From: Candidatus Methanomethylophilaceae archaeon
Lineage (GTDB): Archaea; Thermoplasmatota; Thermoplasmata; Methanomassiliicoccales; Methanomethylophilaceae
Assembly (NCBI GenBank): GCA_944320495.1
Contig: CALUHR010000013.1
Location: 96,001 to 160,000 of the forward strand
Direction: 5' to 3'
Length of the DNA stretch: 64,000 bases
Part shown: positions 4,602-53,062 of the stretch, in pieces
Position numbering within the stretch: the first letter of the stretch is position 1
How the letters are laid out: every line of letters starts with the position of its first letter
The notes under the pieces: generated by a model
Told to the model about the DNA's origin: nothing
Databases searched by the model: none
What the model saw: the letters and a program-made list of their open reading frames with translations, nothing else
Made by a program: the position numbers and the translations under genes

Positions 4602-5504
4602 ATGAGGTCCGCGCTCCTGATACTGCCCATCCTTTCGGGTGTGATGTGGGGCGCAGCGGGGATATTCGTCCGCACACTCTCGGAGTACGGCTTCGACGGT
4701 CAGACCATCGCGTTCTCGCGCGTGCTCATCGCCATGGCCATGATGCTCCTGCTGATCCTGGCAACCGACAGGAGGATGCTCTCGTTCAGGAGGCGCGACA
4801 TCTGGCTGTTCGTCCTGTGCGCGGTGTCGATGACGGGGCTGAACGTGTTCTACACCATAGCCGCCGACGAGCTCTCGCTCTCCCTGGCGGCTGTCCTGCT
4901 CAGCCTGTCCCCGGTGTTCATGGTCCTCATCGCCCGCGTCATATTCGGCGAGGCCATCACCAGGCGCAAGGTGTTCTGCATAGCCGTATCCATCGTGGGA
5001 TGCGTCCTGGTGAGCGGATACCTCGAGAACGAATCTACGCTCTCGATGTTCGGCATCGCGTCAGGAATAGTCGCGGCGGTGTTCTACGCCGTCTACGGAA
5101 TAGCGTCGAAGAAGGCCTCCGCCAGCGGCTACAGCGTCTACACCACGCTGTTCTACTGCATGCTGATCTCCATGGTCATCCTGATCCCGTTCTCAGACCT
5201 CGGCATCGTGGCCGACTACGCGGGCGAGGGGGCCTGGGAGATCGGATTCCTGGTACTGCAGGCGGCGGTGGCATCGTTCCTGCCGTACATCCTGTACTCG
5301 GTGGCGATGGCGCGCATCGAGGCGGGCACGGGGTCGCTCCTGGCGGCCTGCGGGGAGCCGGTGGCGGCCGCCGTGTTCGGACTCCTGGTGTTCGCGGAGG
5401 TGCCGAGCCCGATCATGGTTGTCGGCATGGCCCTCGCCATCGGGGCGATGGCCACGATATGCATGAACCCCAAGAGGGAGGGGAACCTCGCGGAGGATCA
5501 TCGA
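4602..5504 (+). CDS. EamA/DMT family transporter (ends at CGA 5502-5504)
   Basis: Duplicated EamA-type hydrophobic halves, 300 aa to the CGA; under the standard code it would run ~210 nt antisense into the GNAT gene. Confidence 0.85.
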
Positions 5505-5971
5505 AGAAGCGGGCGTTCCATCACGATGCGCATGAGGCCGGCCCTTCCGGACTCCCGGAACCCCTTCCTGGAGTACAGCGAGATCGCCCCGGCGTTCCTC
5601 TCGTTGACCTCCAGGACGATCGAACGCGCCCCGGAGGAGCGGGCGATCCCCTCAACGCGGTCGATGGCCCTCGAACCGAGGCCGAGGCCACGGAACCCCT
5701 CGAAGAGGTAGAGCTTGCCCAGGTGCATCGCGTCCCCCTCCATGCCATAGGCGAGATATCCGGCGCGGACCCCGCACACTGTGATCCACTCGTAGACCAT
5801 GCCCTCGGCCATCTGCCTCCTTATGCCCTCGGACGACTGCTCCTGCTCCAGGAACTCGTCGAGGAGATCGTCCGGCACGTATGAGTAGACCTCTCTGAGT
5901 AGGGAGTATGCCAGACCGGAGAGCTCGTCGGCGTCCTCGGGACCCAGGCGCATGAAACCCGCTTCGCTCAA
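5501..5971 (-). CDS. GNAT family N-acetyltransferase (CGA 5503-5501 immediately followed by TGA 5500-5498)
   Basis: KLYLFEGFRGLGLGS acetyl-CoA motif and VNERNAGAISLYSRKGF; start TTG 5971 or ATG 5953. Confidence 0.85.
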
Positions 5972-6515
5972 GCAGCCTGCCCCCATCGTTCCAGTTGCCG
6001 CGGATCAGACCGCGGCGGGTGTCCGAGATGAACGAGTCCAGCCTGCTCCTGTAGGCCTCGGGCCTGTCGCGGTACAGCTGCACGTTCCCGAGCCTCACGC
6101 GGACGTACAGGTCCGGCAGGACCTGGAAGTTCTCCCAGACGACCGGGTCCGCCCTCAGCTCGTCGAGGACCGCCTCGTCCACGGAGAACGACATGTCCGG
6201 TAGGACCGCCCTGCCGGCGTCCGTCATGAGGCCCAGGCGCTCCAGCCTGCGGCAGCGCGCCTTGTTGAGCTCCGTCCATCTCGACCCCTTGCGGGGAGAG
6301 AACCTCTGGACAGTGCCCAGCTCCGGGTCCTTCCTGACCGTGGAATCGATCCAGCCGAAGCACAGGGCCTCCTCGACCGCATCGACGTACGGCAGGATGC
6401 CCGTCTGGGCCTTCGTCCTGTCCACCGCGACCCAACAGCCCCGGGAGGACCGATGGTTGTCCTCCAGCCAGGACCTGAAACCGGCACGGTCCAGGACGAG
6501 GACGTCCTGCTCCAT
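5964..6515 (-). CDS. YdeI/OmpD-associated family protein (ends at CGA 5966-5964)
   Basis: FRSWLEDNH, YVDAVEEALCFGWIDS, RFSPRKGSRWTELNK, GLMTDAG motifs; 183 aa ending NWNDGGRLLE. Confidence 0.85.
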
Positions 6516-7273
6516 CGGATGACCCCCGGTCTGTAGCCGATGTCGAGGATCCCCTCAATGACCCTGCGGACGTCGTCCGACGCCCTGTCGGCATCTTCGC
6601 GGGACATGACCCCTCCGTCCCTAGTCTCGACCATGTGCCAGGAGTGGTCTGCGATGACGATGTCTCCCTCCGCGGAGGCGGCCATGGCGATGTAGTCCCC
6701 GGGCCCCCTCCTGCCCTCGTGCATCGGCCAGAGGTAGGCGGCGATGACCTTGCCCCCTGGATCCCTGGCCTTGTTCACGGGAAACTCGACCATGTCCTCC
6801 AGAAGGAACGGCTCCGACGGGGAGCCCACATCCGTGTAGGACGATGAGTCGTGCCTGATACCCAGGCGGCGCACGGCGCTCAGGACCCTCGCGTCGGCGG
6901 TCATGTACGGCGCACGCGAGCAGACGGGCCTGCCCACCCTGTCGGAGACAGCCGAGAAGGAACGTGCCAGCGTGCCGCGGAGATGGTCATCCCCCAGGGA
7001 AGTCAGGTCCTCGTGGTCGTAGCCGTGGACGCCTATCGAATGCCCGGCGGCGCGTGCGCAGTCTATGACCTCGGAGGTGCGGCCCTCGAAGAACAGCGTG
7101 CCGCGGATGCCGATGCCGTCGAGCAGATCCAGTATCGCGCCCAGACCCCTCTCCGAGGACGAGAAGCGGGGGGCGTCGCCGAAGCCCCTGTCCAGGGACC
7201 CGGCGGCGACCCTCCCCGGGACGCGCACGTTGACGTCCCGGTCTATGTCGGCGGTGTAGTACAGCCGTCTCAT
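6515..7273 (-). CDS. Polysaccharide deacetylase (NodB-like) (ends at CGA 6517-6515)
   Basis: TADID, GTLFFEG, IGVHGYDHE, RAPY motifs; ATGA overlap with AMP phosphorylase and CGATG overlap with the next gene; 252 aa. Confidence 0.8.
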
Positions 7274-8784
7274 TTCCTGACGTTCATGTTGGAGACCCTC
7301 TTGATGAGCATCCCCTCGATGTCTATCGGCGGATACTTGATCGCGGTCTCCCTGGCGCGCCTCAGCTTGGCCTCGTTGTCGGCGTAGATCGTCATGAGGA
7401 CGTCCCCGGCCTCGACCCTCTGACCCTTCTTCTTGTAGATCATCAGGCCGGCACCCTTGTCGTTCGGCGCGCCGGCGGCCTTCGCGATCGCGACGACGTC
7501 CTTGTTGTGGATCGCATGGATGTATCCGGACTTGGACGCCACGATGTCCTCGCTGAACTGCCCGGGCTTCAGGTCCTCGGACTTCAGCTCGGGGCTTCCG
7601 CCCTGGGCGACGACGATCTCCATGAACTTCCTGTGGGCGGCGCCGGACTCCAGGATCTCCCTGGCCTTGGCGGCCCCTCCCGGGATCCCGGCCATGTCCA
7701 GGATGATGCCGGCGCAGTCGCAGGCCTTCTCGATGACGCTTGCCGGGTGCTTCGCTCCCTCCAGGATCGAGATGCACTCCCTCGCCTCGAGGTTGGGTCC
7801 GACGGCGTTGCCGACGGGCTGGTCGGCGTAGGTGATGGCGCACTCGGTGTGGATGCCCAACTTCTCGCCCAGGTCCATCATGTCCCTGGCATAGACACGG
7901 GCGTCCTCGATCGTCGGCACCTTCGTGCCCGTCCCGGTGGGTATGTCCACCAGAAGGTAGTTGGCGCCGATGGCGAGCTTCTTGCTCATGATGGACGCGA
8001 GCATCTGCGCCCTGGGGTTGATGCCGAGCGGGTGCTCTATCTTGATGACGATGTCGTCCACGGGGGCGATGTTCATCCCGCCTCCCCAGGCGAACACGCC
8101 TCCGACCTCCTCGGAGATCCTCTTGAGGCTGGGTCCGTCGAGCTCGACGTCGCAGAACGTCTCCACGAAGTCGGACGTCCCGCAGGCGCTGCTGATGGCC
8201 CTGGACGAGGTCTTCGGGATCATGACGCCGGCGGCCGCCACGATGGAGACCACGATGGGCGTGATCTTGTTCCCGGGGACGCCTCCGAAGCTGTGGAAGT
8301 CGAAGACAGGCTGCCTGTCGAAGGCGATGATGTCACCGGTGTGGGCCATCGATTTGGTGAAGTCGGCGATCTCGTCGATGTCCATGCCGTTGATGTACAG
8401 CGACGTCAGCCAGGCGGACACCTCGATCTTGGAGAGCTTGTTGTCCAGGATGTCGTTGACGATGGACTCGATCTCCTCGCGGGACAGCTTCTCGCCGTCC
8501 ATCTTCCTGCGGATGGAGCGGACGGAGTCCGGCTTGCTGGAGTAGATGACCTCCACCTCGTCCCCCTCGCGGACGGCGCAGCGCTCCATCACCGGGCCGG
8601 GCATCATGACGACGCCCCTCTCGACGAGGGTGTCCGAGCACGTGACCAGGGCGACGGCGCTCCTCGGACCGGAGATGGAGACGCGGTCGTTCTCCTTCAC
8701 ACCGATGGCGGCCGCGTCGTCCTCGTGGATCAGCACAAGGGGCTCTGCGGCATCGAGGTCGTAGTAGCGTGCGATGAGCTTCAT
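7270..8784 (-). CDS. deoA: AMP phosphorylase
   Basis: MKLIARYYD start at 8784; DFHSFGGVPGNKIT, PKTSSRAISSACGTSD, SIMSKK motifs; adjacent to RuBisCO and R15P isomerase. Confidence 0.92.
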   Translation of the reverse strand: MKLIARYYDLDAAEPLVLIHEDDAAAIGVKENDRVSISGPRSAVALVTCSDTLVERGVVMMPGPVMERCAVREGDEVEVIYSSKPDSVRSIRRKMDGEKLSREEIESIVNDILDNKLSKIEVSAWLTSLYINGMDIDEIADFTKSMAHTGDIIAFDRQPVFDFHSFGGVPGNKITPIVVSIVAAAGVMIPKTSSRAISSACGTSDFVETFCDVELDGPSLKRISEEVGGVFAWGGGMNIAPVDDIVIKIEHPLGINPRAQMLASIMSKKLAIGANYLLVDIPTGTGTKVPTIEDARVYARDMMDLGEKLGIHTECAITYADQPVGNAVGPNLEARECISILEGAKHPASVIEKACDCAGIILDMAGIPGGAAKAREILESGAAHRKFMEIVVAQGGSPELKSEDLKPGQFSEDIVASKSGYIHAIHNKDVVAIAKAAGAPNDKGAGLMIYKKKGQRVEAGDVLMTIYADNEAKLRRARETAIKYPPIDIEGMLIKRVSNMNVRK

Positions 8785-10016
8785 GCGGATCCCCACTTGT
8801 CGAGAGCGGCCCTGAGCTCGGGGTGCGTCTCCGCGTACTCCGCCGCGGGGATGCCCTCGAACGCGGCATCCACCGCCTGGCTCATCCCCATCGCACCGGC
8901 GCGGACGCCGCCGGGATGGCCGGCCACGCCGCCTCCCGCCTGGATCTGCACGTTCATGCCGGAGCGCCTGATGATCTCCCCGACCAGTCCGGGATGGACA
9001 CCACCGGAGCACACGGGCATGACCGCCTTGTAGGGCACGTCGTCCCCTAGGCACGCGCGGAGGTTGCTGTCATCGTGGGCCCCCGCGGACATCTTGCCGA
9101 CGCCGAGCGTGCCGATGTGGAGGGCGTCCCCGCCCACCATGCGGACCAGCTTGGTCAGGGCGAGCATGTTCACGCCGTGGAGCGGGTCCTTGGTGAACGC
9201 CCCGTGCATCGTCCTGTGGACGTGTATGGGCACCTTTATGGACGGGTCCTCGGCCAGGGCCTGGAGGCATCCGTATCCGCAGGTGATCACGTCGATCATG
9301 ATCTCCCTGGCGCCCCACCCCTGCACCTTCTCGGCGAGCTCCAGGATGCGGTCGCTCCTGGTGCTGACGTTTACGGCGTGCATCATGTAGTGGCCCTCCT
9401 CCTCCAGGCGGTCGAGGGCCTCGGCCACCTTGACAGTCCTGTCCTCGATGGGGCAGAACGCCTGGTCCACCAGGGTCTCGTCGTCCTTGGAGTTGGTGAG
9501 CCCTCCGGACCCGGCCTCGTAGACGTACTCGGCCGTCTTCTCCGGAGAGAGCCCGATCTTCGGCTTCACGATGGTCCCGACCAGGGGCTTCTCGGGCCTG
9601 TGCAGGGCCTGCCTGATCCCCTCGGCCCCGAACTTGGGACCCTTGAACTGCTCCAGGATGCTCTTCGGGAAGGTCACGTCCTCCAGCCTGACGGCCTTGA
9701 GCGCGCCGAGGCCGAACAGGTTCCCGGCTATGACGCTGAGGATCTGGGGGACGGCGCCGTTCTCGATGCTGAAGTCCTCGGCGGGGAACTCGCAGGTGAC
9801 GATGTCCCCGTCGATCGAGGTTATCCTCGCGCCGAGGGTGTCGAAGATGCCGTGGTCCAGGGTGGAGATCCCGGTCCACGTGCCGGTGGACTGCTCCGCC
9901 GCGATGGCCTCCGCCGCCTTCTCCATCGGAAGGTCGGTGGTGACCCTGTATCTGCAAACGACGTTCCTGTCCGGGTCCTCGGGCTCCCCGAGGTGAAGGT
10001 AAGAATAGCTCTCCAT
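8781..10016 (-). CDS. rbcL: Form III ribulose-1,5-bisphosphate carboxylase
   Basis: Catalytic motifs present: GTIVKPKIG, KDDE, HVHRTMH, LHIGT, VGKM, SGG, GGG; 411 aa. Confidence 0.92.
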   Translation of the reverse strand: MESYSYLHLGEPEDPDRNVVCRYRVTTDLPMEKAAEAIAAEQSTGTWTGISTLDHGIFDTLGARITSIDGDIVTCEFPAEDFSIENGAVPQILSVIAGNLFGLGALKAVRLEDVTFPKSILEQFKGPKFGAEGIRQALHRPEKPLVGTIVKPKIGLSPEKTAEYVYEAGSGGLTNSKDDETLVDQAFCPIEDRTVKVAEALDRLEEEGHYMMHAVNVSTRSDRILELAEKVQGWGAREIMIDVITCGYGCLQALAEDPSIKVPIHVHRTMHGAFTKDPLHGVNMLALTKLVRMVGGDALHIGTLGVGKMSAGAHDDSNLRACLGDDVPYKAVMPVCSGGVHPGLVGEIIRRSGMNVQIQAGGGVAGHPGGVRAGAMGMSQAVDAAFEGIPAAEYAETHPELRAALDKWGSA

Positions 10017-10021
10017 CGAAA

Positions 10022-10948
10022 TCGCTCCCTTGAGAATATCCCGTCGCCCAGCTGCCTCACCATGACGTCATACACCGAGCCGGGACTCATCATGCCCAGC
10101 TCCGTGACGATCGCGTCTATGTACGCGGCGGGGGTGCTGTCGAACACTGGATTGAATATCTTTACCGAGTCGCGGACCTCCCCGGGCCTCACGACCTCGG
10201 AGATTTCGCGCTCCTCTATGGTCACCGAATCGCCGAACATTGTCATCGGCGAGAACTTGTAGGTCTCGGCGCAGGCGTAGAGGTGCACCCTGGCCTCGTG
10301 GGCGGCCAGCGCAAGCTGGGACGTCCCGACCTTGTTGATGAGGGCCCCCTGGGACGTGACGGTGTCGGCACCCACGAACACCTTGTCGACCTTGCGCATC
10401 ACCGAGCGCACCGCGCTGTCGATGATCAGCGTGACGTCCACGCCGGCGTCGGCCAGGTCGTTGACCGTCAGGATGCCCTGCCTCCAGGGACGGGACTCGG
10501 TTGCGTACACCCTGATGTCCTTCCCCTGCCTGTGGGCCTCCTTGATGACGCCTAGGGCGGCGCTGCTGTTGCAGTGCGTCATGATGACATCGCCGTCCTG
10601 GATCCTGCGTGCTCCGATGCGGGCGATCTCCTCCACCGCCCTCTCGGACCTTTCGCAGAATGCCTTCGCGTTGGCCAAGACCAGCGACCTTGCCTCCTCG
10701 AGGGAGGATGCCTCGGACGCGCCCCTGACCGTGGCGTGCAGCCCGTTCCACAGCGAGACCGCGGTGGGCCTCGATGCGAGGATCGTGTCGCTCGCCCCCT
10801 TCAGATCGGCGAGGAACCCCTCCAGGGTCCCCCCGGTGTACGTGTCGGCGAAGTCGCCCAGCGCGGACGCTCCCGCCCTGGCGATCCTCCCGGCCCCGCG
10901 AATCCTCATGCTGCGGATCAGCTCCGCAGTCTCCTCCGCCGTGGTCAC
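10022..10948 (-). CDS. Ribose-1,5-bisphosphate isomerase (eIF2B-alpha-like) (ends at CGA 10024-10022)
   Basis: IRGAGRIA, SRPTAVSL, MTHCNS, TESRP, VGAD, NKVGT, NPVFDSTP motifs; probable GTG start 10948; sequence reads GAG CGA TTT CG ATG(rbcL). Confidence 0.9.
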
Positions 10949-25492: not shown

Positions 25493-26038
25493 ATGACCGC
25501 GCGCGACGATCCCGACGTCAGGGACAGCAGGCTGATGAGCAGGATACTGCGCCACTGCCCCGAGAGATACGGGGTCGCCCTGGACCGCGACGGGTGGGCA
25601 TCGGTGGAGGGGCTCAGCAGGGGCTCCGGACTCCAGGCGGAGCGCATAATCCGCATAGCGGAGACCAACACCAGGTACGAGCTGTCCCCCGACGGAGGGA
25701 GGATAAGGGCGCTCCACGGCCACAGCGTCGACGTCGGATACGGGGCGCCCGTGTCCCCTCCGGACGTGCTCTACCACGGCACCAGCAGGGAGAACCTGAA
25801 GGGGATCATGGCCTCGGGTGCGATACTCCCGATGAGGCGCACCATGGTCCACCTGTCGGTCTCCGTGGAGAGGGCGGAGGAGGTCGGCAGGAGGCACGGT
25901 GAGCCCGTCGTCATATCCGTGGATGCCAGGAGGATGGCCGGGAGCGGGTTCGAGTTCTTTCTCTCGGGGGACGGGGTGTACCTCACGGAGAGGGTGCCGA
26001 CGGGATACTTCCTGGTCGTGACCGATATGGGGGATCGA
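25493..26038 (+). CDS. kptA: RNA 2'-phosphotransferase Tpt1/KptA (ends at CGA 26036-26038)
   Basis: SRILRH, IRALHGHS, LYHGT, RRTMVHLS, VYLTERVP; 181 aa. Confidence 0.9.
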
Positions 26039-26380
26039 TCGCAGGGTCCTGTCGATCCTGTGTATCTCCTCGTACTGCTCTAGGACCTCGCCGTCCTCGC
26101 GCATCTCGCCGCAGATGATGAAATCGGCGGCCTGCAGATGGTTGGCCACCCTCGTCCCGCCGGGGGTGATCGTGTAGAACCTCGTGACGTGCTTCCCCGT
26201 CTCGAGGTATGTGTCGGCCATTCCCAGCTCGACGAGCCTGCGGCCGATCCTGGAGGCCGTGGTGTAGTTCGAACCGAACCTGTAGAGGTCGCCCTCCTTG
26301 ATGCGGCCCTTGTAGCTCAGAAACATGATGGCATCCGCTATGTACCTTTCCGACAACGGGGATACATCGTTGCGTGCCAC
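26039..26380 (-). CDS. Small winged-helix DNA-binding protein (ends at CGA 26041-26039)
   Basis: HTH-like core TTASRIGRRLVELGM followed by wing FYTITPGGTRVANHL; 113 aa; its stop abuts the kptA stop. Confidence 0.6.
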
Positions 26381-38772: not shown

Positions 38773-39003
38773 TTCCGTAGGTCTAGTGGGATGACGTATG
38801 GTCGCCTGAAATCCCCGATCCTGCCCTCCAGCAGACTAGTTATCGTCAATGCACGGCCGAATTTGAGGTACATGAGGACACCGTCACAGCCCTATGGCGC
38901 CAGCTCAAGCTTGCCTGTATATTTTGATTATACCGACATGATGCCGCCATAACCTGGATACGGACCATGCCAGAATCATGAATCGTTAATGAAGTCCCTG
39001 CCA

Positions 39004-40104
39004 TCATGATAAACAGAGAGATAGGGTGAAAAACAGAACCAATGTGATCATGAACGACGCCGAGTTGCAGAGAACTATCTCAAAAACACTGCGATATTGG
39101 TATTCGGAGTACAGGAACTGCTTGAAAATCAAGGAGATCCTGCGCCGTTTAATGCATTGGACTGTACAACCTATATCCTCCACATAAGAAAGAAGAGCAA
39201 TAGTCAGTTCGCTTAAACCAGAGATTTTGCGGAAACGAACTAATGTCTCAAGGAGAACAGACAGAGTGAAATCCGATATCACAGCCAAGAATGCAATCAT
39301 GACGCAGAGTGGATCCGATGTCGCAAAAGACAGGATTGCACCTAACACCATCAATAGGATGTGTACGGGGACCTTGTTTATCCTGGGAATTGTTTTGTTC
39401 GGGTACTTTGATATGAGCTTGGCATCGGCCTTCCCGTAATTGTATAGTCTCCCAATCACGTCCCTCGGGTTGTCCCATGTTTTGTTTGAGTGGTATACTA
39501 TGGCATGACGGGCAGATGCTATGGTATATCCCGCCTCGTTCAACCTGACGCCTATATCGACGTCCTCCCCTCCCGGCTTATTCGGAAACGATTCATCGAA
39601 ACCTCCTATCTCCTCCAGGACCGCCTTTCTTATGGAAAAATTCGCAGTAGGGCCCCAAGGCACGGCGTCAACCTCGTTGGGGAGGGAAAATGCAATCATC
39701 CAGGGAGATCCACGAATTGTCCTGAAGAATCTGGTGTTCTCACCCTCCAATGTAATTGGCCCGCATGCGGCACCGATGTGACTCCCCTCGTATGAGGTCC
39801 AATGCGCCATTATCGCCCTTTTATCTAGAACACAGTCGGAGTCACAGTAGTATAGGAGCTCATACTTGGCATATTTCGCCGCAAGATTGCGCTTGATGGC
39901 CACCGACTCTCTTGCATAGTAATACCTGTACCCGAATTCCGAACACATCGATTCAATGATTCTAGCATCGTTCGTTTTGGAATTGTCTACGACAACGACC
40001 TCCCACGGCATGTCCTTGTCTGCGTCTAGTATGCTTTCGAACAATCTCCTGAGAAGAGCTATGCGACCGCAACAAACCACTAGGATGCTCACTCCATCCA
40101 TCAT
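39004..40104 (-). CDS. GT2 glycosyltransferase with C-terminal TM helices
   Basis: EVVVVDN, YCDSD, GGFDESF, GGEDVD. Confidence 0.85.
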   Translation of the reverse strand: MMDGVSILVVCCGRIALLRRLFESILDADKDMPWEVVVVDNSKTNDARIIESMCSEFGYRYYYARESVAIKRNLAAKYAKYELLYYCDSDCVLDKRAIMAHWTSYEGSHIGAACGPITLEGENTRFFRTIRGSPWMIAFSLPNEVDAVPWGPTANFSIRKAVLEEIGGFDESFPNKPGGEDVDIGVRLNEAGYTIASARHAIVYHSNKTWDNPRDVIGRLYNYGKADAKLISKYPNKTIPRINKVPVHILLMVLGAILSFATSDPLCVMIAFLAVISDFTLSVLLETLVRFRKISGLSELTIALLSYVEDIGCTVQCIKRRRISLIFKQFLYSEYQYRSVFEIVLCNSASFMITLVLFFTLSLCLS

Positions 40105-40105
40105 A

Positions 40106-41911
40106 TCACATCATGAAGACAAGTGCACAGATTACGAATGAAAACGAACCAAGAGCCATACTCAGGCATGTGCATACAGTTCTCCTGACAATCTCCTTCT
40201 CATCGAAAGAGTAGAGCCTCAGTCTGAGGATAGAATCCAATCCAAATCCACGCAGAAATCTAATCCTTGCAATTTTACAAGATAGATTGCGATACATGAT
40301 CAACACGCATACGATCCTTGTAACAACCAACAACAGGAGGGATGCTGATGCCCAAAGTCTGATAGCCCCGTCTGCAAGGATAAAAAGAGCCAGCAGAACA
40401 ACAGCAACGGACAGGAACGCTGGAAATCTGTGCAGAGAAACCTCTGGCACAGCCCTGCAGATGGATGCGGCCTGCATGCCCCATAGCCGCTCCACAGCCT
40501 TCTCATACTCCTGGGGAACTCCGATCAGTGATGCGCTTTTATCGGAGCAAATATGCCTCCATCCGCTTACTTTGGCAATAACGTCTAGAGGTGTGCCGAA
40601 TCCCGCTCTAAGAACGTCCTCGGTCCGAACTATGTAGAGCATCCCCGGCTTGTAGAATTCTTCCATCGACAAGGAAAGTGACTCAGATATATCCTGAAAA
40701 AAATGGGATGTATCCATCCGGAGAGTGAGTCTGGCACATTCCCCCTGTTCGATTGTAGAAAGTACGTCACTCGACCTGACAGAACATCTTAGGGGACTTA
40801 TCACCATCATGTCGCATTTCAGAGATTCCAACGAGCGAATTGTCCCCTCGTCTGTCAGTTCAGGCTCCACTCCAACAAAGATACAACGTCCGATTCTGAG
40901 ACCGTTCTCATTGATGTAGCGATTCAGACGCCCGGAACGCCACATCATCATCGAAACCTTTGCATAACCTGCGACTGCAGAGAGTGCTTTGAAAAACGTG
41001 ACTGACCCGAATAGAAACACGGGAACCAAATATGCCGCCCAAATGGGATCGACATGAATCATGGAAACTAAAATCGCCAATGGAAGAAAAATTACGAAAG
41101 TTGGCGTCAGCGGAAGATAAGTATAATCGAAAAACGGCCACAAACCAGAACGCACGATGGCGCGAAGGGTGAACAGCTCAACCGCCAGCGAGGTCATGAG
41201 AATGACGAGATTGATTGGCCACCCTGACGTTGGCAGAATCATCACAATGCATGATGTCGCCAACCATTCCACGACTATGCATATGTAGATTCCCCGTTTG
41301 GAAGCGATCTGATGAGTGCCGAAGAAAGTTTTCGTTTTTGAAGCAACATCGTTGTCATGGTCCATCGACTGGTGTATGAGGATGTAACGGACTCCCAGAG
41401 CAAAACCCAGGATCATCGTCGCCGAAAATATCACCGGATTCACCGGGATCATGAGAGGCAATACAGTCAATGGACTGCAGCGTTGGGCATATGACGAGAC
41501 AATGACCCCCATCAACCCACGCTCCTTGAAACGGATCGGCCTCAGAGAATATGACGTACTCAGGAATAGATTCGTAACAACGACGATGGTCATTGGTATG
41601 CTCGGAAAAACAAATATCGGAATCAAAACCGGAACTGTCGCTAACAAGAGACTGCAGTATCTAAAACACATCGATCTGGTCGAGAACATATTCGATTTAC
41701 CGACTGCACGATCCTGCTCCACGTCGCTGAAATCATTGGCGACATAACCCGAAATCATAATTGCGACAGAAAGAACTGAGAAACACACAAATGGCAGCAC
41801 GGACTCTTCCGGAGTCACTCCGGACACCAGAAAGACCGCGATTGCCCCCAGCATTAGGAATGGAATCTTGGATCCAGCCCAATCATCCATTCTTAAACTT
41901 CTGATTCTCAT
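40106..41911 (-). CDS. UbiA-family prenyltransferase fused to an unassigned C-terminal domain
   Basis: Asp-rich motifs NDFSDVEQDRAVGKSN and HQSMDHDND, YSLRPIRFKER; ~600 aa. Confidence 0.7.
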   Translation of the reverse strand: MRIRSLRMDDWAGSKIPFLMLGAIAVFLVSGVTPEESVLPFVCFSVLSVAIMISGYVANDFSDVEQDRAVGKSNMFSTRSMCFRYCSLLLATVPVLIPIFVFPSIPMTIVVVTNLFLSTSYSLRPIRFKERGLMGVIVSSYAQRCSPLTVLPLMIPVNPVIFSATMILGFALGVRYILIHQSMDHDNDVASKTKTFFGTHQIASKRGIYICIVVEWLATSCIVMILPTSGWPINLVILMTSLAVELFTLRAIVRSGLWPFFDYTYLPLTPTFVIFLPLAILVSMIHVDPIWAAYLVPVFLFGSVTFFKALSAVAGYAKVSMMMWRSGRLNRYINENGLRIGRCIFVGVEPELTDEGTIRSLESLKCDMMVISPLRCSVRSSDVLSTIEQGECARLTLRMDTSHFFQDISESLSLSMEEFYKPGMLYIVRTEDVLRAGFGTPLDVIAKVSGWRHICSDKSASLIGVPQEYEKAVERLWGMQAASICRAVPEVSLHRFPAFLSVAVVLLALFILADGAIRLWASASLLLLVVTRIVCVLIMYRNLSCKIARIRFLRGFGLDSILRLRLYSFDEKEIVRRTVCTCLSMALGSFSFVICALVFMM

Positions 41912-43250
41912 AGAAGTCATCTGCTCTGTCAACCTTCAGAAGTTCCAGACCGTTGTTGGTGATGAACATGCAGTTGTCACAGATCCTAGGCAGCTTTCCA
42001 CTGAAGAACAGTTCCCTCAACCTTACGAGAGGATTCCCGTTCCACACCTCGGTGAAATCACGATCGAGATTGCCAACGTTATGAAGAACGTCTATGCAGC
42101 ATGCGATGACCTCTCCCTTTGCCGTGACCATGGAGGTGTCCCAGATCCGGTCGCAGATGCCGTTGCAAGTGCTTCTGGATTTCTGGGGATTCAGGTCAAA
42201 TCCGTACAAGCTCCATCTCTCGCTCATTGGCGAGCATCTATCTATCTGGCGCGGTGGATCCCACGGCTCCGAACCTATGCGTATAATGTCTAAATCGTAG
42301 TCTGAATCCGAAAGAGACAAGAAATAATCAGGATAGATCAGCTCTATGCCTACAGCTTCTGCTACCTGAATTGCACGTTTTAGATGCGTTTTTAGAGCTG
42401 ATGGATACAGCACAGGGTCATCATATTTGTTCAAAGCATTGTCATTGATTCCCACTCTTGTGAAAATAACCCGTTGGAATCCGTTCTCGACAGCGTATTC
42501 GACTATACGCTCTAACTCAGCGATGTTGTGTCTCATCACCACTGTCGCCAACGTCATGAACGTTTGTGGTGAAGCCGACCTAAACCGACGGATGTTTTCT
42601 GTCACACGCTCCAGGTTCAGACCCTTACGTATGATGGAGTACATCCTCGGATCTACAGAATCCAACGAAACCGTCAATGTTTCAAATAAATCATGATGAG
42701 CCAGCACTGCATCCGGAAGTATTGACATGTTCGTGTTTGTGGACACATGGATGTGATACTTGGAATACAGATCTAAACGGGAACCCAGAGCAGGATCCAT
42801 GAACGGCTCCCCATTGCCATGTAGGACAATAGTGCGAAGATATGGCATCACAGATTCGAGACACGATACGAAATCATCCGTGAGATGGGATGCCCCGATA
42901 TTACGACGATAGTAGTGTACACACATTATACACTCTGCATTGCAAAATGACGTGTGCTCCAACTGAAGGGTCATTGGATAATGGCGGAATACAGACCTGC
43001 CTTCGACCAGATCGTGGCAGGCAAGTGCCTCATTGAGATCTTTGACGGTGTCGTAATCACCTAGCTCAAGACACGACAAGATCGTAGATTCTATGGCATC
43101 GGCATCGGAGAGATCCACATTCACACGGCCGTTTTCATAAGCAATGGGCGATTGACCCCGACGTATCATATCTGGCAACCAGTCTTTCATTGATTCGTGA
43201 ACAGGCGATTGACAGGTCACTTCCTGGATGTCATTGCCCGAAGACACCAC
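41883..43250 (-). CDS. Radical SAM protein with SPASM/twitch-like C-terminus
   Basis: CNAECIMC, GNGEPFM, STN, GEVIACC...VGNL...CDNC. Confidence 0.88.
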   Translation of the reverse strand: MVSSGNDIQEVTCQSPVHESMKDWLPDMIRRGQSPIAYENGRVNVDLSDADAIESTILSCLELGDYDTVKDLNEALACHDLVEGRSVFRHYPMTLQLEHTSFCNAECIMCVHYYRRNIGASHLTDDFVSCLESVMPYLRTIVLHGNGEPFMDPALGSRLDLYSKYHIHVSTNTNMSILPDAVLAHHDLFETLTVSLDSVDPRMYSIIRKGLNLERVTENIRRFRSASPQTFMTLATVVMRHNIAELERIVEYAVENGFQRVIFTRVGINDNALNKYDDPVLYPSALKTHLKRAIQVAEAVGIELIYPDYFLSLSDSDYDLDIIRIGSEPWDPPRQIDRCSPMSERWSLYGFDLNPQKSRSTCNGICDRIWDTSMVTAKGEVIACCIDVLHNVGNLDRDFTEVWNGNPLVRLRELFFSGKLPRICDNCMFITNNGLELLKVDRADDFYENQKFKNG

Positions 43251-43251
43251 A

Positions 43252-44121
43252 TCACACCCACAGATGCTGAGGGTAGGTTCCTTTCACCTTCTCTTCGTTA
43301 ATATGCTTCAAAAGAGCATCGTAATCATCGCGATACGTAACTCCCATCCATGATGCGTTCGTATCCACACAGTTCATCTTGATCTCCCCCAGAGATAGCA
43401 ACGAATCCAGAACAGTGGATAGCACGAACTCCTGTCCATCCTGCTCGTGATCCTTGATGAACATCTGAAGCCTCTGCCTTAACATAGTGAAAATCGAGGG
43501 ATTGAGCACGAACAGGTTCATGGAGACTGGATTACTCTCGCATATGCGCATTACTTTATCTGAATTCAAAGGACGACAAGCAATTCCATCCGAATCGACC
43601 CACACTTCCGACTCGATGATCCTGCGAATATGGCCGGAGTCTACCTTGCAAATGCCACGTTTCACCGTCCCGTGTGGAGAGAGTGTATTTCCGACTCTGT
43701 AGCATATGCAGCCACATTCTCCACTGCCTGAAAGCGGAGAGTTGAGCATTCCGGTAATAAGGGCACCCCTACCATAGAAATCATCAGCATTGACGACCAG
43801 AAACGGCTCCTCCAGGTGTCCTTCGCAGCAGAGAAGGGCAAATCCGGTACCAGATGGCAATACATGAACAGACATCTCATTTTCAGGATATTCCTGAATG
43901 ACGAATTCCAATGGAATCCTGGCACCAATTCTCGCCTTCAGAGCCTCGAAGAACTTCAGATGGCTCTTTTGAATAACTATGATGACTTTGCTGTAACCGC
44001 AAAGAATTGCATCATATATGGAATAGTCGATTAAGAAATTCCCGTCATCATCAACTGGTTCATACTGCTTCAACCCCCCGTATCTCTTACCGAGGCCGGC
44101 TGCCAGTATCACCATTTGCAT
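43252..44121 (-). CDS. Sugar-phosphate nucleotidyltransferase family protein
   Basis: ILAAGLGKRYGGLKQ, LIDYSIYDA, VVNADDFYG, WMGVTYRDD. Confidence 0.85.
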   Translation of the reverse strand: MQMVILAAGLGKRYGGLKQYEPVDDDGNFLIDYSIYDAILCGYSKVIIVIQKSHLKFFEALKARIGARIPLEFVIQEYPENEMSVHVLPSGTGFALLCCEGHLEEPFLVVNADDFYGRGALITGMLNSPLSGSGECGCICYRVGNTLSPHGTVKRGICKVDSGHIRRIIESEVWVDSDGIACRPLNSDKVMRICESNPVSMNLFVLNPSIFTMLRQRLQMFIKDHEQDGQEFVLSTVLDSLLSLGEIKMNCVDTNASWMGVTYRDDYDALLKHINEEKVKGTYPQHLWV

Positions 44122-44231
44122 AATTGGGACATTGACGTACCATTATTAATTTTAACTATTTTAGTATAAATTCAATTTTGAATTTGATAATAATATTTAA
44201 GACCATTATCCAGATTGAACTATGAACGGTT

Positions 44232-45545
44232 ATGAAGACTGTGAGCGAGACCAAGATCGGATTCGTCGGACTGGGATACGTCGGCACGGTGAGTGCTGCA
44301 GGTTTCGCGATTCTGGGATTTGATGTTTACGGATACGATCTGGATGAAAGGAAAGTGACCAGTCTTATAAACAGACAGCCGCTCATCTACGAATCTGGAC
44401 TCCAGGAAGTTCTGTTAGACGCCGATATTTCATCAAGAATGCATTTCGTGTATGATATCGACAACCTGGTTGATAATGCGGACGTCATCTTCGTAACAGT
44501 TGGGACACCGGAATCTATTGACGGCTCCTGCAACACATCTTTTGTCACACAAGCTCTTGAATCCATACTGTCACGTCTCACAGAGAGAGGTCTGGACAGC
44601 ATTGTTGTGGTAAAAAGCACCGTGCCCGTAGGATTCACACAAGAATTCATCGATTCTCTTGGAAACGACGAAGGAATCTGTCGGAACATATGCTTCAGTC
44701 CAGAATTTCTCAGAGAAGGATCCGCTCTAGATGACTTTCTCAATCCGAGCAGGGTGGTGATTGGCACAACTGATGCAAGCATTTTCGAGACTGTTGCCCA
44801 CCTATACGGAAAATATGAATCGAAAGGAGTTCCGATTCTAATGATGGATCCGACCTCTGCCGAGCTAGTGAAGTATGCCTCTAACTCGTTTCTGGCAGCG
44901 AAGGTCGCTCTGATTAATGAATTCGCTGACCTTTCTCACGCTGTTGGTGCGAACATTGATACCGTGTCGAGAGCGATAGGAATGGACCCACGGATCGGTA
45001 ACGAGTTCATGCGCGCATCGGTCGGATTCGGTGGGAGTTGCTTTCCGAAAGATGTGTCTGAGATTGACCATAGATCCAATAGTCTTGGAATACGCCACCC
45101 CCTCATCGGCTCAATTCTTGAATCAAACAGAGCCCACATAGAGAGGATGACGGATCGCATTGACAGATGTGCGAAACATCAAGGAATCAGAACGATTTCA
45201 ATCCTGGGCCTGGCTTTCAAACCTGACTCGGATGATATCCGCGAATCCCCTGCCATTGAAATCGCATCGAAACTTCTTGAAAGAGGATATGTTGTGAAAG
45301 CATACGACCCACTGGCAGGACCCAATGCACTTCTAGCCCTGCCAAAGGGGATTGAGATACTCGACAATGCATACGACTGCATGAATGAGGCGGAGATGGT
45401 AACCATCCTAACGGGATGGCGTTCCTTCAGAGAGCTAAAATTCTGCAGGTCTGGAAGTGTGCGGATCGTTATGGATCTCGCCAATGTCCTGGACGGTGAA
45501 ACGATCGGTGCCATGGGGCTCGAATACCACAATATAACGGAGTGA
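44232..45545 (+). CDS. ugd: UDP-glucose/GDP-mannose dehydrogenase
   Basis: GLGYVG, VGTP, KSTVP, PEFLREG, KYASN, GFGGSCFPKD, FKPDSDDIRES. Confidence 0.92.
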   Translation: MKTVSETKIGFVGLGYVGTVSAAGFAILGFDVYGYDLDERKVTSLINRQPLIYESGLQEVLLDADISSRMHFVYDIDNLVDNADVIFVTVGTPESIDGSCNTSFVTQALESILSRLTERGLDSIVVVKSTVPVGFTQEFIDSLGNDEGICRNICFSPEFLREGSALDDFLNPSRVVIGTTDASIFETVAHLYGKYESKGVPILMMDPTSAELVKYASNSFLAAKVALINEFADLSHAVGANIDTVSRAIGMDPRIGNEFMRASVGFGGSCFPKDVSEIDHRSNSLGIRHPLIGSILESNRAHIERMTDRIDRCAKHQGIRTISILGLAFKPDSDDIRESPAIEIASKLLERGYVVKAYDPLAGPNALLALPKGIEILDNAYDCMNEAEMVTILTGWRSFRELKFCRSGSVRIVMDLANVLDGETIGAMGLEYHNITE

Positions 45546-46678
45546 CGAATACGACCGTTGACTTCTCCATCGTCATACCCACATGGAACAGAAAGGAGTA
45601 CGTTGAACGTCTCCTGAAATCCATCGCAGAGGACAGACAATCCTACACGGGCGGCTCTACAGAGATAATAATCGTAGACAGTAGCGTGGATGAGGAACGC
45701 GACTCCATAATGGAATCCTGCAAAAGGTATGGTGCACGCTATATTGAAGGGCCCGACTCTGTGAGGAAAAAACGCAACATGGGAATCGTGGATTCGCGGT
45801 TCGACCATATCCTCTTCCTAGACTCAGACGTCATAGTGGAGAAGGGACTTCTGGAAGCGCACGCCAGAGTGTACGAAGAGTCCCCATCAGAGAATCTTGG
45901 AGGCACATTCGGCGTAACCGAATTCTATGGAGAAAGGTCATTCATCTGGAAAGTTGTCGAATACACGAACTACACTGTTGCGTTCGATCAGGCTAAGAAA
46001 TACCCCTATGTGAACTGGACGATTGGAAACAACGTTTCTTTCGTAAAGAAATGTCTCGTAGACATAGGTATGTTCGAAGAAAACCTGCCGTTTAAGCTTG
46101 GAGGAGATGATCTCGATCTAAGCTATCGGGTAGTCGCCAGCGGGCATCCGATCAAATGTACGTCAGAGGCAGTGACATATCATTCTCGTGAAACATGGAA
46201 TTCCAGAGATGCCATCAATAACAGGACGAAGAGATGGGGTGCGATGGAGTACTACAACTCGAAACGTCACTGGAATTTGATGAAGAAGACCCTCCCCGGG
46301 CTTCCGATCATGTTCTCTATGGCAACACTGTCCCTTTTGATATCATTCCTAATAACAGAATCAACAGCGTTTCTATGGTCTATCCCTGTGATCGGTATTC
46401 TGACGTTCATAATCGGTTTTGCCTGTGATGCTACTAACAGCCACAGATACAATATCATATACTATGGATTAGCGAAACTCCTCGGTGTAAAATACAGCTA
46501 TTACAAAATCAAAGAGTGCTGGCACAATCATGACTTCGGGCTGATTGGAAGAGTCATGATCTTTGACAAAGGACATGCCATGGCCGAATATTCTGCGAGA
46601 AGCCGTAAAATGGACTGGTTCCTGATATCGTCCGTAGCAGTATTCCTCATAGATTTCCTACTTACAAGGATGGGTTGA
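45542..46678 (+). CDS. GT2 glycosyltransferase with C-terminal TM helices
   Basis: SIVIPTWNR, FLDSD, GGDDLD; GTG start overlapping the ugd stop. Confidence 0.85.
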   Translation: MTNTTVDFSIVIPTWNRKEYVERLLKSIAEDRQSYTGGSTEIIIVDSSVDEERDSIMESCKRYGARYIEGPDSVRKKRNMGIVDSRFDHILFLDSDVIVEKGLLEAHARVYEESPSENLGGTFGVTEFYGERSFIWKVVEYTNYTVAFDQAKKYPYVNWTIGNNVSFVKKCLVDIGMFEENLPFKLGGDDLDLSYRVVASGHPIKCTSEAVTYHSRETWNSRDAINNRTKRWGAMEYYNSKRHWNLMKKTLPGLPIMFSMATLSLLISFLITESTAFLWSIPVIGILTFIIGFACDATNSHRYNIIYYGLAKLLGVKYSYYKIKECWHNHDFGLIGRVMIFDKGHAMAEYSARSRKMDWFLISSVAVFLIDFLLTRMG

Positions 46679-46682
46679 CTCC

Positions 46683-47789
46683 ATGGACTTCAGTGTCGTT
46701 ATACCGGCCCGCGGTCGCACGGATCTCCTCAGAACACTGCTGGAGAGCCTGAATACCGCCAGGGGTTTCAATGACGGTGATGTGGAAATCCTGATTCTAG
46801 ACGATAGCGACGAACCGTATTCGACAGCGATCAAATCCATGTCTACAGGACTCGGTGCAAGCTATATTCGTGCTGAAATGACAGTGGGTGCTAAGAGAAA
46901 TCTCGGTGCCAGAATGTCAAATCACGACATCGTTGTTTTTCTTGATTCAGATGTTCGTGTGTCCGATAATTTCTTCTGCGGATATGAAAGGGTTTTCGCC
47001 GCCAAGGAGATCAACATGGCGATAGGACTTTTGGAGTTCTATGGCGACGAGAGCTGGTACTGGAAGGTTGTCAAGTCCACCCCGTTCGTAAAATGTTTTG
47101 ACATGCCACGGTACATGGACATGCTCCCATGGGGATGTTCCTGCAACATGGCAGTCCGGAGAGACTTCTTCCTTGAACTATCCGGATTCAGCGATGAATT
47201 CCGCGAACCGGCAGGAGAGGATGTTGATCTAGGCCTTAGGGTTAGCAAGCGCCACATTCCAATAGTCCCAGTCAAAGAATCGGTGGCGTTCCATTCCAAC
47301 ACCACCTGGTCAAAGAGACGGGACATGATCCGTCGTGTTTGCATGTACGGGAGAGGGGATGCAGTCCTTGTTGAACGCCATCCTGACTCGACGGTGAGAT
47401 CGGGCCTCCGCCGTTGGATCTTTTTCCTCGCTATCACCATAATCTGCTGTCTTTCGGCAATCGTTTCTGAAAATGCCTGGATGCTTCTGATGATACCGAC
47501 ACTCATTGTTGCCGAACTCCTCGCTGTATCTGCCAAGATATCGGTAAAAACTGAAGATGTTAGCCTGTGTCAGGCACTGGCATCCCAAGAGCTGGTGCTA
47601 CGCAATGAGCTGTCATACATCTTGACCTGCATATCAAGAGGACATCCGGGCAACGTCTTCAGACAGATCGTCACCGTTGAGGGACAGGCATATGACATCT
47701 TGGATTTCATGAGATTCGCCTACCTATTGGACCTTGGTCTGCTGATGCTCCTCTTCATATTCTCGGGATTGGTGATAACATATGCATGA
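46683..47789 (+). CDS. GT2 glycosyltransferase with C-terminal TM helices
   Basis: SVVIPARGR, FLDSD, GFSDEF, GEDVD. Confidence 0.85.
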   Translation: MDFSVVIPARGRTDLLRTLLESLNTARGFNDGDVEILILDDSDEPYSTAIKSMSTGLGASYIRAEMTVGAKRNLGARMSNHDIVVFLDSDVRVSDNFFCGYERVFAAKEINMAIGLLEFYGDESWYWKVVKSTPFVKCFDMPRYMDMLPWGCSCNMAVRRDFFLELSGFSDEFREPAGEDVDLGLRVSKRHIPIVPVKESVAFHSNTTWSKRRDMIRRVCMYGRGDAVLVERHPDSTVRSGLRRWIFFLAITIICCLSAIVSENAWMLLMIPTLIVAELLAVSAKISVKTEDVSLCQALASQELVLRNELSYILTCISRGHPGNVFRQIVTVEGQAYDILDFMRFAYLLDLGLLMLLFIFSGLVITYA

Positions 47790-48972
47790 AGAACAGATGA
47801 AAAAATTCCTCCAGTGCGTAAAGTCGGGTTATTTCAACAATCCTGTCACCATAGAACGTGTAGAACCGTTGAAAGGTCTGTCAGAGCTGTCATATGACGA
47901 CTTTTGTCACATCCCGGTAATGACGAAGAGCGACATAAGATCGACATCCATCGAAACACGCGAACTCGAAAGCGGAAGATGCGTCGGCATATTCTCCAGC
48001 AGCGGATCCACCGGCAAGAGGACATATTATAAGTTCAGCCAAGAGGACCAGGATGTCTTCAATGAGACTGCCAGAGAGCTGTTCGGCAGACTCGGCGTGA
48101 ATTCCGACGATGTCTTCGCTGTTTGTGCCCCCGTAGGGGAGGGGATAATGGCCCACTGCATGATATGGGAGGCCATTGCCAACTGCTCGGGGTATACTGT
48201 ATGCCCAACCCCATCGCCTTCGAATGTGATGGAAATGTTGGACAACATCCCTGTAACGATAATAGCGGGATTGCCGTCTGTCTTGGACTTCTCGCTTGAA
48301 TCAGAGAAGGGGACACAGAGCCATAAGACGCATCTTCGCATGATGATCTCTGGCGGGCACTATATGTCCGAAGCGAAGCGCGATCGCATCGAGTCAGTCT
48401 GGGGGATAGAATGGTACAATGCGTATGGAATCAGCGAATTCTTCGGTCCGTTGATGTGCGAGTGCCGCTGTAAAAACGGATTCCATTACAACCAGAAATG
48501 TCTCTTCGTCGAAATTGTAGATGTCCATTCCAAAGAACCTATCGAGGGACCGGGGAAAATCGGCATAATGTTGCTCACACCTCTATGGAAGAAAGGATCC
48601 CCTCTGATCAGATACTGGACTGACGACTACGCCGAATGGATAGACGAACCCTGTACTTGCGGTGCATTCGGACGCAGAATCAGGATACTTGGCAGACAAT
48701 GTGATGTGATTTGCATCAATGGGAGATACATCTTCCCCAACGACATCGAAGAGATTCTCGTCAGGAACAGCAGAAACACCTTGGCATACTTCGACATCGA
48801 AGATGATGATATCGTCTGCTTCCTCCCGGAAATTAACGGATCATGCGGAGAGCTTGAGAGACTCTTTGACACAGAGATTCACTTCAAAACAAAGAGCGAA
48901 TGGCCCAATATCAACCGCCCGAAGCCATATTACTTCAGCAAAACATTGAAACAGAGGCTGAGTGACAGATGA
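47782..48972 (+). CDS. Phenylacetate-CoA ligase (PaaK)-like adenylating enzyme
   Basis: IPVMTKSDIR, SSSGSTGK, YGISE, PLIRYWTDD, CTCG, LGRQCD. Confidence 0.8.
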   Translation: MHEEQMKKFLQCVKSGYFNNPVTIERVEPLKGLSELSYDDFCHIPVMTKSDIRSTSIETRELESGRCVGIFSSSGSTGKRTYYKFSQEDQDVFNETARELFGRLGVNSDDVFAVCAPVGEGIMAHCMIWEAIANCSGYTVCPTPSPSNVMEMLDNIPVTIIAGLPSVLDFSLESEKGTQSHKTHLRMMISGGHYMSEAKRDRIESVWGIEWYNAYGISEFFGPLMCECRCKNGFHYNQKCLFVEIVDVHSKEPIEGPGKIGIMLLTPLWKKGSPLIRYWTDDYAEWIDEPCTCGAFGRRIRILGRQCDVICINGRYIFPNDIEEILVRNSRNTLAYFDIEDDDIVCFLPEINGSCGELERLFDTEIHFKTKSEWPNINRPKPYYFSKTLKQRLSDR

Positions 48973-49892: not shown

Positions 49893-49896
49893 TTCG

Positions 49897-52993: not shown

Positions 52994-53062
52994 TTCGATG
53001 TCCCATCCATAACAAGAGTGGAACAGGTTGAGATTCAATGGCATATGAACCTCAATTCGAAA

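Follow-up and report, generated by a model that had tools for sequence, protein, structure and literature searches.

How does a gene end when the triplet in the place of its stop codon is CGA, which the standard code reads as sense? The question is raised by a 64,000-nucleotide stretch of an archaeal draft genome (G000:C13:96001-160000, hereafter the window), in which an initial annotation had pointed to CGA triplets at gene ends that share their A with the ATG of the following gene, as if CGATG stood in for the TGATG of translationally coupled genes. The genome (G000; 1.77 Mb, 61.5% GC, 14 contigs) belongs to the family Methanomethylophilaceae and has as its nearest named relative Candidatus Methanoprimaticola sp. 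MG2 (G013), a member of the same genus; according to the sources of related assemblies, the organism is a gut methanogen. We estimate the probability at roughly 80% that CGA serves here as a translation stop alongside TGA, TAA and TAG. CGATG would then be an ordinary stop/start overlap, at which the archaeal release factor aRF1 frees the peptide and the ribosome reinitiates. The junctions are probably one face of a sense-to-stop change of the genetic code, of which we found no published description in this group.

CGA at gene ends and operon junctions

Three junctions display the pattern in the window. On the minus strand, a polysaccharide-deacetylase-family gene (6515-7273; Pfam Polysacc_deac_1) ends in an in-frame CGA (6517-6515), the A of which also opens the ATG (6515-6513) of a YdeI/OmdA-like gene (CGATG at 6513-6517; ...GTC ATC CGA TGG AGC...). 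On the same strand, the gene for ribose-1,5-bisphosphate isomerase (R15P isomerase, IF-2B family; 10022-10948) meets that of the type III RuBisCO large subunit (rbcL) in the sequence ...AGG GAG CGA TTT CGA TGG AGA..., where both CGAs are in the isomerase frame and the second (10018-10016) has its A in common with the rbcL ATG (10016-10014; CGATG at 10014-10018). On the plus strand, the gene for UDP-glucuronate decarboxylase (UXS; 48969-49892) ends in AGG CGA (49890-49892) and is followed, after TTCG, by an ATG at 49897 (...TAC AGG CGA TTCG ATG G...). At all three places the sequence reads as the initial annotation had it, and the ATGA overlaps that it saw between neighbouring genes of the minus-strand operon (8784-8781 and 7273-7270) are real as well.

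Its account of the isomerase stands in part. The second CGA does overlap the rbcL start, but the protein most likely stops at the first (10024-10022), because the ribosome meets this CGA two codons ahead of the overlapping one. The first CGA aligns with a TGA in G013 (AGG GAG TGA vs AGG GAG CGA), and the GC content at third codon positions (GC3) goes from 0.84 upstream of it to 0.53 downstream. The Pfam IF-2B domain covers residues 16-289 of the 308 that result when the gene is ended there; its start, a GTG at 10948, comes from a crude call. Homology of UXS to human UXS1 also stops at the CGA (query residue 308), and the Pfam GDP_Man_Dehyd profile reaches position 332 of 332 at residue 302 of 307. 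Read with translation table 11, the isomerase would continue into the next gene for 65 codons past its CGA, the deacetylase for 96 and UXS for 19.

The rest of the genome follows the same pattern. A crude, GC3-based gene call with CGA as fourth stop yielded 1652 genes of at least 60 codons, of which 1113 end in TGA, 415 (25%) in CGA, 74 in TAG and 50 in TAA. (The 74 calls ended by TAG have a median length of 74 codons, and many may be spurious.) From each terminal CGA to the next standard stop there are at least 10 codons in 294 of the 415 genes and at least 100 in 115. Where coding ends was then read from 846 long stop-to-stop open reading frames (ORFs) with high GC3 and low GC content at second codon positions (GC2). 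In-frame CGA has nearly gone from the cores of these ORFs, with 5 occurrences in the fifth length decile against 64 of CGG and 130 of CGT, and rises steeply toward the 3' end. When ORFs are aligned on the first CGA within their 3' 60% (n=159), GC3 is 0.88 up to codon -6, 0.84 over codons -5 to -1 and 0.595 from codon +1 onward. No such drop follows CGG, CGT or AGA, so that no other arginine codon marks a coding end; the initial annotation had called for a comparison of CGA with other arginine codons. Tails with GC3 below 0.7 follow CGA in 75% of cases, as compared with 4-16% for 11 control codons. The GC3 filter alone had let antisense shadow frames, which also have high GC3, into the first screens of relatives, and the condition that GC content at first codon positions exceed GC2 was added as a remedy. 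Under a stricter filter without shadow frames, CGA is terminal in 195 cases genome-wide, ambiguous in 36 and possibly internal in at most 3, one of which resembles two genes that share a frame. Throughout the genome, CGA marks the point at which coding stops.

Context-dependent stop codons with a dual meaning, of the Condylostoma type, are frequent as sense codons inside genes and act as stops only at gene ends (PMC4967479). That combination does not describe G000, where internal CGA is practically absent both from the 846 ORFs and from the genome-wide count.

The junctions themselves were assessed from a histogram of the gaps between co-directed genes. A control that counted the triplets ending on the A of each ATG had been dropped, as it is confounded by ATGA overlaps, in which that base closes the last sense codon ahead of TGA. 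A co-directed neighbour follows 194 CGA-ended genes, and in 42 of these pairs the gap is -1, which is CGATG; gaps of -4, -2 and 0 do not occur, while +1 and +2 account for 5 and 4. After 712 TGA-ended genes, the gap is -4 (ATGA) in 194 and -1 (TGATG) in 27. CGA cannot form an ATGA overlap and therefore the one-base form dominates, as the main type of tight junction after CGA-ended genes. Counted over all terminal codons, CGATG follows 87 of 415 CGAs (21%) and TGATG follows 84 of 1113 TGAs (7.5%; Fisher p = 2e-12), a difference to be expected if CGA is a stop unable to enter the four-base overlap. CGA overlaps real downstream starts far above chance. The proposal that CGA occupies the stop slot at operon junctions, with CGATG as the counterpart of TGATG, is thus borne out by the 42 of 194 gaps at -1 and by a GC3 collapse confined to CGA.

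The same positions in related genomes

At orthologous junctions, G013 reads ...ttggacTGAtggcaagg where G000 reads ...ttggacCGAtggcaagg, and gtgatgCGAtggc of G000 corresponds to gtgatgTGAtggc in G018, a sister genome with 98% identity. The reading of G013 is atgaggttggacTGAtggcaaggatcaag, which is the same in G000 but with CGA, and that of G018 is ctgggggtgatgTGAtggc, the G000 counterpart of which is ctgggggtgatgCGAtggc. Between isomerase and rbcL, three other relatives (G006, G002, G014) have TTC TGA TGG where G000 has TTT CGA TGG. The initial annotation had proposed a comparison of the same junctions in relatives, and what they hold is TGATG with identical flanks, or a TGA or TAA at the same C-terminus. 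CGATG is therefore TGATG after a T-to-C transition that is tolerated at a stop/start overlap, and on this reading the CGATG junctions are nothing other than the usual one-base overlap between the stop and the start of co-directed genes. Taken together, the GC3 collapse, the ends of orthologues and the TGATG of relatives make it probable that the overlapping CGA truly terminates the upstream protein.

Individual genes show the exchange of stops well. The deacetylase/YdeI CGATG is identical in G018, and after the conserved V-I motif of the deacetylase the 18 genus genomes read have CGA in 9 (G000 and 8 others) and TGA in 9. Outgroup deacetylases end in TGA or TAA; those of Methanomassiliicoccus have a sense CGA directly before TGA. 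For the isomerase, the stop is a TGA or TAA no more than 3 codons away from the first CGA of G000 in 64 of 67 species, and a CGA in 3. We also aligned the CGA-ended proteins of G000 to the DNA of 25 relatives. Within the genus, 107 of 112 orthologue ends have a stop within 5 codons of the CGA (TGA 81, CGA 24, TAA 2), and outside the genus 16 of 19 do. CGA is thereby shown to be homologous to the TGA of relatives. In 11-40 kb sampled per relative, in-frame CGA after 80 coding codons is terminal in 21 cases and internal in 7 within the genus; outside it, 3 are terminal and 36 internal.

The habit is spread unevenly. CGA makes up 17-26% of orthologue ends in G018, G010, G009, G001 and G016 and a few percent in G013, G004, G006 and G015, and was seen at none of the orthologue ends sampled in G017, G011, G007, G005 and G008. 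Given this unevenness, the genus seems to span stages, with CGA gone from coding sequence everywhere and accumulated at stops mainly in some, mostly GC-rich, lineages.

Release mechanism and competing explanations

If CGA is a stop, the single aRF1 (G000:C2:85942-87135, locus L031; one copy per genome) would release the peptide at a codon that differs from UGA in its first base only. The ribosome would then reinitiate at the overlapping or nearby ATG by termination-reinitiation coupling, as is described for ATGA and TGATG pairs. Such a state may have been reached in two steps. CGA would have dropped out of use in the genus while its tRNA decayed or was lost; TGA-to-CGA transitions would afterwards have been tolerated and have accumulated under GC pressure, to about 25% of the stops in G000. 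Termination at CGA may be somewhat leaky.

A tRNA whose anticodon, UCG, should read CGA is still encoded in G000, a point that the initial annotation had missed; aragorn located it outside the window (G000:C13:413317-413390; loci L091-L102 across the genus). Its pair 31-39 is mismatched in all 11 distinct sequences of the genus, leaving an anticodon stem of 4 bp, and its D loop is shortened, whereas the tRNA-Arg(UCG) of outgroup genera is canonical, hardly varies and has a normal C31-G39 pair. The complete genomes of two members of the genus, G008 and G015, yielded no tRNA(UCG). The altered tRNA might compete weakly at CGA and so render it leaky, or it might serve some other purpose. Pairwise identity to the other tRNAs of the genome did not single out a nearest paralogue (73% to Pro(CGG) and Arg(GCG) alike).

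Several observations weigh against termination at CGA by aRF1. Counting G000, no fewer than 12 genomes of the genus conserve the tRNA(UCG), so that in these the cognate tRNA has not been lost. Compensatory changes at 6 pairs preserve its fold, its anticodon loop hardly varies (positions 33-37 agree throughout, while G000 and G018 deviate at 32 and 38), and it retains A20, C35 and G36, the arginine identity elements. To our knowledge, all known codes with a sense-to-stop change are without the cognate tRNA. In aRF1, the recognition motifs NIKS and YxCxxxF are intact. The genus-wide Arg-to-Met substitution described below cannot be a sufficient cause, as the P0015 and P0114 lineages, which also have this Met, use CGA inside genes and even within aRF1 itself. 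Moreover, 47 of the 415 terminal CGAs (about 12%) lie within 3 codons of a standard stop, so that for such genes it matters little how CGA is read, and the gene calls are crude, which makes all counts approximate.

The substitutions in aRF1 that run through the genus adjoin NIKS (KSTRKNV to KTTMKNV) or precede YxCxxxF. The Arg-to-Met exchange lies four residues past NIKS, at what an offset to human eRF1 makes position 68, and Met occurs there in 3 of 134 archaeal cluster representatives; Methanomassiliicoccus outgroups have Gln. A change of GRGTEL to GRSTEL (Gly-to-Ser, in the region aligned with the GTS motif of eRF1) is confined to G000 and G018. Position 56, a Gln in the genus, was considered as a determinant and set aside, being variable across archaea and uninformative. 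The Y-R-C of the second recognition motif, with Arg at the position equivalent to L123, is found in ingroup and outgroup alike, and by analogy with eRF1 this Arg might at most be a predisposition to the reading of CGA. Among the aRF1s of the genus, the outgroups and the 134 representatives, we found no change that explains how CGA is read.

A more specific version of the aRF1 model would make CGA a true fourth stop of a free-living cell, leaky and tunable as the restructured tRNA-Arg(UCG) persists and competes. In that case, the tandem CGA TTT CGATG and the CGATG overlaps might act as fail-safes and reinitiation sites. There are hints that CGA is a weaker stop than TGA: it accounts for 17% of stops in the top GC3 quintile and 34% in the lowest, hence is rarer in the most codon-biased genes, and a back-up in-frame stop (TAA, TAG, TGA or CGA) lies within 3 codons of 22.7% of terminal CGAs as against 14.6% of terminal TGAs. 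T directly follows 53% of terminal CGAs and 29% of terminal TGAs. The T at +4 and the commoner back-up stops are a possible sign of context dependence or leakiness. We hold the leaky, competing stop to be a tentative proposal. If true, it would be a living intermediate of codon capture, in which a sense codon turns into a stop while its tRNA is still present.

Alternatively, CGA might be an unassigned, "hungry" codon and not one that aRF1 reads. With tRNA(UCG) crippled or absent, ribosomes would stall, and rescue by aPelota/ABCE1 followed by peptidyl-tRNA hydrolase would end the protein. This would fit an aRF1 with no convincing change of specificity and a tRNA(UCG) that is always mismatched at 31-39 in the genus and was not found in two complete genomes, and both the rarity of CGA in the most codon-biased genes and the back-up stops could be read the same way. 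Yet rescue at a quarter of genes would be costly, and the occurrence of CGATG at the frequency and in the exact register of TGATG suggests a normal post-termination ribosome that is able to reinitiate. Direct reading of CGA by a release factor is, besides, possible for yeast eRF1 (PMC7379694). We therefore regard stalling as unlikely. Still less probable is that C-to-U deamination, as in plant organelles, turns CGA into UGA in the mRNA, so that the ribosome meets a standard stop. A single C-to-U change does separate the two, and relatives have TGA at the same sites. However, an editor would be blind to the reading frame, and out-of-frame CGA is abundant: there are 2961 aligned codon cells of the type NCG followed by A (NCG|A). 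Agreement with the unedited residue is as frequent in these as in NCG codons followed by another base (for CCG, 84% vs 77%), the residue predicted by editing is matched in just 0.6-2.9% of cells, and therefore frame-blind editing of CGA to UGA is rejected. A site-specific editor would have to recognize some 415 sites without a common context beyond the T at +4, which is implausible.

It could finally be argued that nothing has changed, and that CGA is still arginine, with the long C-terminal extensions and gene overlaps of table 11 being real. The conserved tRNA(UCG) with its arginine identity elements speaks for this, as do outgroup genera that use CGA as sense, for instance in the ...GAC CGA TGA of G028. 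Against it stand the collapse of GC3 exactly at CGA, the near-total absence of CGA inside genes, tails that are not conserved although orthologues stop at the place of the CGA, and 115 genes whose tails would reach into the one that follows, by as much as 100 codons and more. The comparative data already contradict arginine, and we give it very little credence. An artefact of sequencing, assembly or binning, to which a draft in 14 contigs might be prone, is the least credible of all: the pattern recurs in many assemblies of the genus that, by their record names, stem from separate projects (a RefSeq record, MG2; UBA480; UBA537; S8M_St_41 and S8M_St_50; SI.A92). It is also frame-specific, and no error process converts only in-frame terminal TGA into CGA.

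Known systems and further sites in the window

Sense codons have become stops in mitochondria, with AGA and AGG in vertebrates, UCA in Scenedesmus and UUA in Thraustochytrium (NCBI tables 2, 22 and 23). We know of sense-to-stop changes only from a few mitochondria. As in these, the former sense codon is absent here from the inside of genes and present where homologues carry standard stops. In contrast to them, the genome is a cellular one of 1.77 Mb, the codon is CGA, a tRNA with the cognate anticodon is kept in much of the genus, and release would fall to aRF1 in place of a mitochondrial release factor.

Among archaea, CGA has been suggested as a possible stop for two hydrothermal-vent assemblies in which CGG encodes Trp (Melnykov 2026, bioRxiv 10.64898/2026.04.02.715157). 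There too CGA is absent from recognisable domains, and the author raises the possibility of a sense-to-stop change. Those assemblies are described as having about 50% GC, a CGG reassigned to Trp and no tRNA(UCG), and the suggestion came without evidence from gene ends, whereas here tRNA(UCG) persists and the terminal use of CGA is shown by homology and by the structure of junctions. In G000, CGG occurs inside genes and aragorn finds a tRNA with anticodon CCG. We found no published description of CGA as a stop in Methanomassiliicoccales or Methanoprimaticola, and for archaea only the suggestion for the vent assemblies.

A release factor that reads CGA has a precedent in yeast, where eRF1/eRF3 detectably reads a single gene-end CGA as a stop in competition with tRNA-Arg (Wada and Ito 2018, PMC7379694), and where L123F, L123R or L123Y in eRF1 enhances the reaction (PMC7379694). 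The aRF1s of the genus resemble the L123R variant in having Arg at that position of the motif (Y-R-C). CGA reading in yeast is a weak side reaction on a rare codon, whereas here CGA would be the regular terminator of about 25% of genes. As for the tRNA, those with a 4-bp anticodon stem are described as altering decoding, as when tRNA-Trp(CCA) reads UGA in trypanosomatids and ciliates, and a bacterial survey deals with them too (PMC13092985). The unpaired 31-39 in all distinct tRNA(UCG) sequences of the genus is similar; in the known cases, however, the short stem helps to read a stop as sense, while here the cognate codon appears to have turned into a stop. ATGA and TGATG overlaps with termination-reinitiation coupling are known from archaea and bacteria (Huber et al. 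2019, PMC6728339; PMC10666635). The CGATG junctions share with them co-directed pairs, an exact one-base overlap, Shine-Dalgarno-like purine runs and orthology to TGATG junctions of relatives. They differ in that the overlapping codon is sense in the standard code and that the four-base form is impossible, hence the 42 gaps of -1 against none of -4; coupling at CGATG is putative.

New contributions are the statistics on junctions, the matching of CGATG to orthologous TGATG, the exclusion of frame-blind editing, the uneven distribution across the genus and the results on tRNA(UCG) and aRF1. If confirmed, the use of CGA to terminate a quarter of the genes of a cellular organism would represent a new kind of genetic-code variant. 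The genus might also offer a view of the process, from genomes in which CGA is unused and no tRNA(UCG) was found, through those in which CGA is rare, to those in which it makes up 25% of stops and an altered tRNA is kept. Annotation of the genus with table 11 would create hundreds of false C-terminal extensions and spurious gene overlaps, errors that reach protein databases and metaproteomics. The CGATG junctions could serve as natural constructs, in which termination at CGA is readable through the expression of the downstream gene.

The minus-strand operon consists, in order, of the genes for R15P isomerase, rbcL, AMP phosphorylase, the deacetylase-family protein, the YdeI/OmdA-like protein and a GNAT acetyltransferase. 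The rbcL gene (8781-10016; Pfam RuBisCO_large_N and RuBisCO_large, up to residue 408 of 411) ends in TGA and is joined by an ATGA overlap (8781-8784) to the gene for AMP phosphorylase (7270-8784; Pfam Glycos_trans_3N, Glycos_transf_3 and PYNP_C). The latter also ends in TGA and overlaps the deacetylase start in the same way (7270-7273). With CGA as stop, the YdeI/OmdA-like gene (5964-6515; Pfam OmdA) ends in CGA at 5966-5964, and 10 nt beyond it comes the GNAT gene (5501-5953; Pfam Acetyltransf_1), which ends in CGA as well. Shine-Dalgarno-like purine runs, read by eye as candidate ribosome-binding sites, lie in the ends of upstream genes, with AGGGAG ahead of rbcL and GGGGGT ahead of the YdeI-like gene. 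The archaeal genes of AMP salvage (R15P isomerase, type III RuBisCO, AMP phosphorylase) thus share a tightly packed operon (5501-10948) with deacetylase, YdeI/OmdA-like and GNAT genes, and in several relatives the deacetylase is close to the AMP-salvage genes on the same contig.

On the plus strand, the gene that follows UXS encodes a family-2 glycosyltransferase (GT2; 49897-50757; Pfam Glycos_transf_2 from residue 4), with its ATG 4 nt past the CGA. Both genes lie in a low-GC island (39000-53000; about 47% as compared with about 62% GC) of glycosyltransferase and sugar-nucleotide genes. Thirteen genes of the island, in which AGA is plentiful, contain no internal CGA, and two end in CGA; either the donor had the same code, or the island has been purged of CGA. 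When CGA is taken as a stop, the mapped genes cover the window one after another and no long overlaps arise. Palindromes occur where convergent genes have CGA stops in common or side by side (TCGA at 5501-5504, CGATCG at 26036-26041), and genome-wide TCG is the commonest triplet directly after a terminal CGA (54 of 415). The decamer CGATTCGATG follows two CGA-ended genes (49890-49899 and 52991-53000), and the related CGATTTCGATG stands at the isomerase/rbcL junction (10014-10024, minus strand). As a junction motif, CGATT(T)CGATG thus occurs at 3 places in the window, although at 52991 no called gene start follows; on both strands of the genome there are 15 copies of CGATTCGATG, 7 of CGATTTCGATG and 0 of TGATTCGATG.

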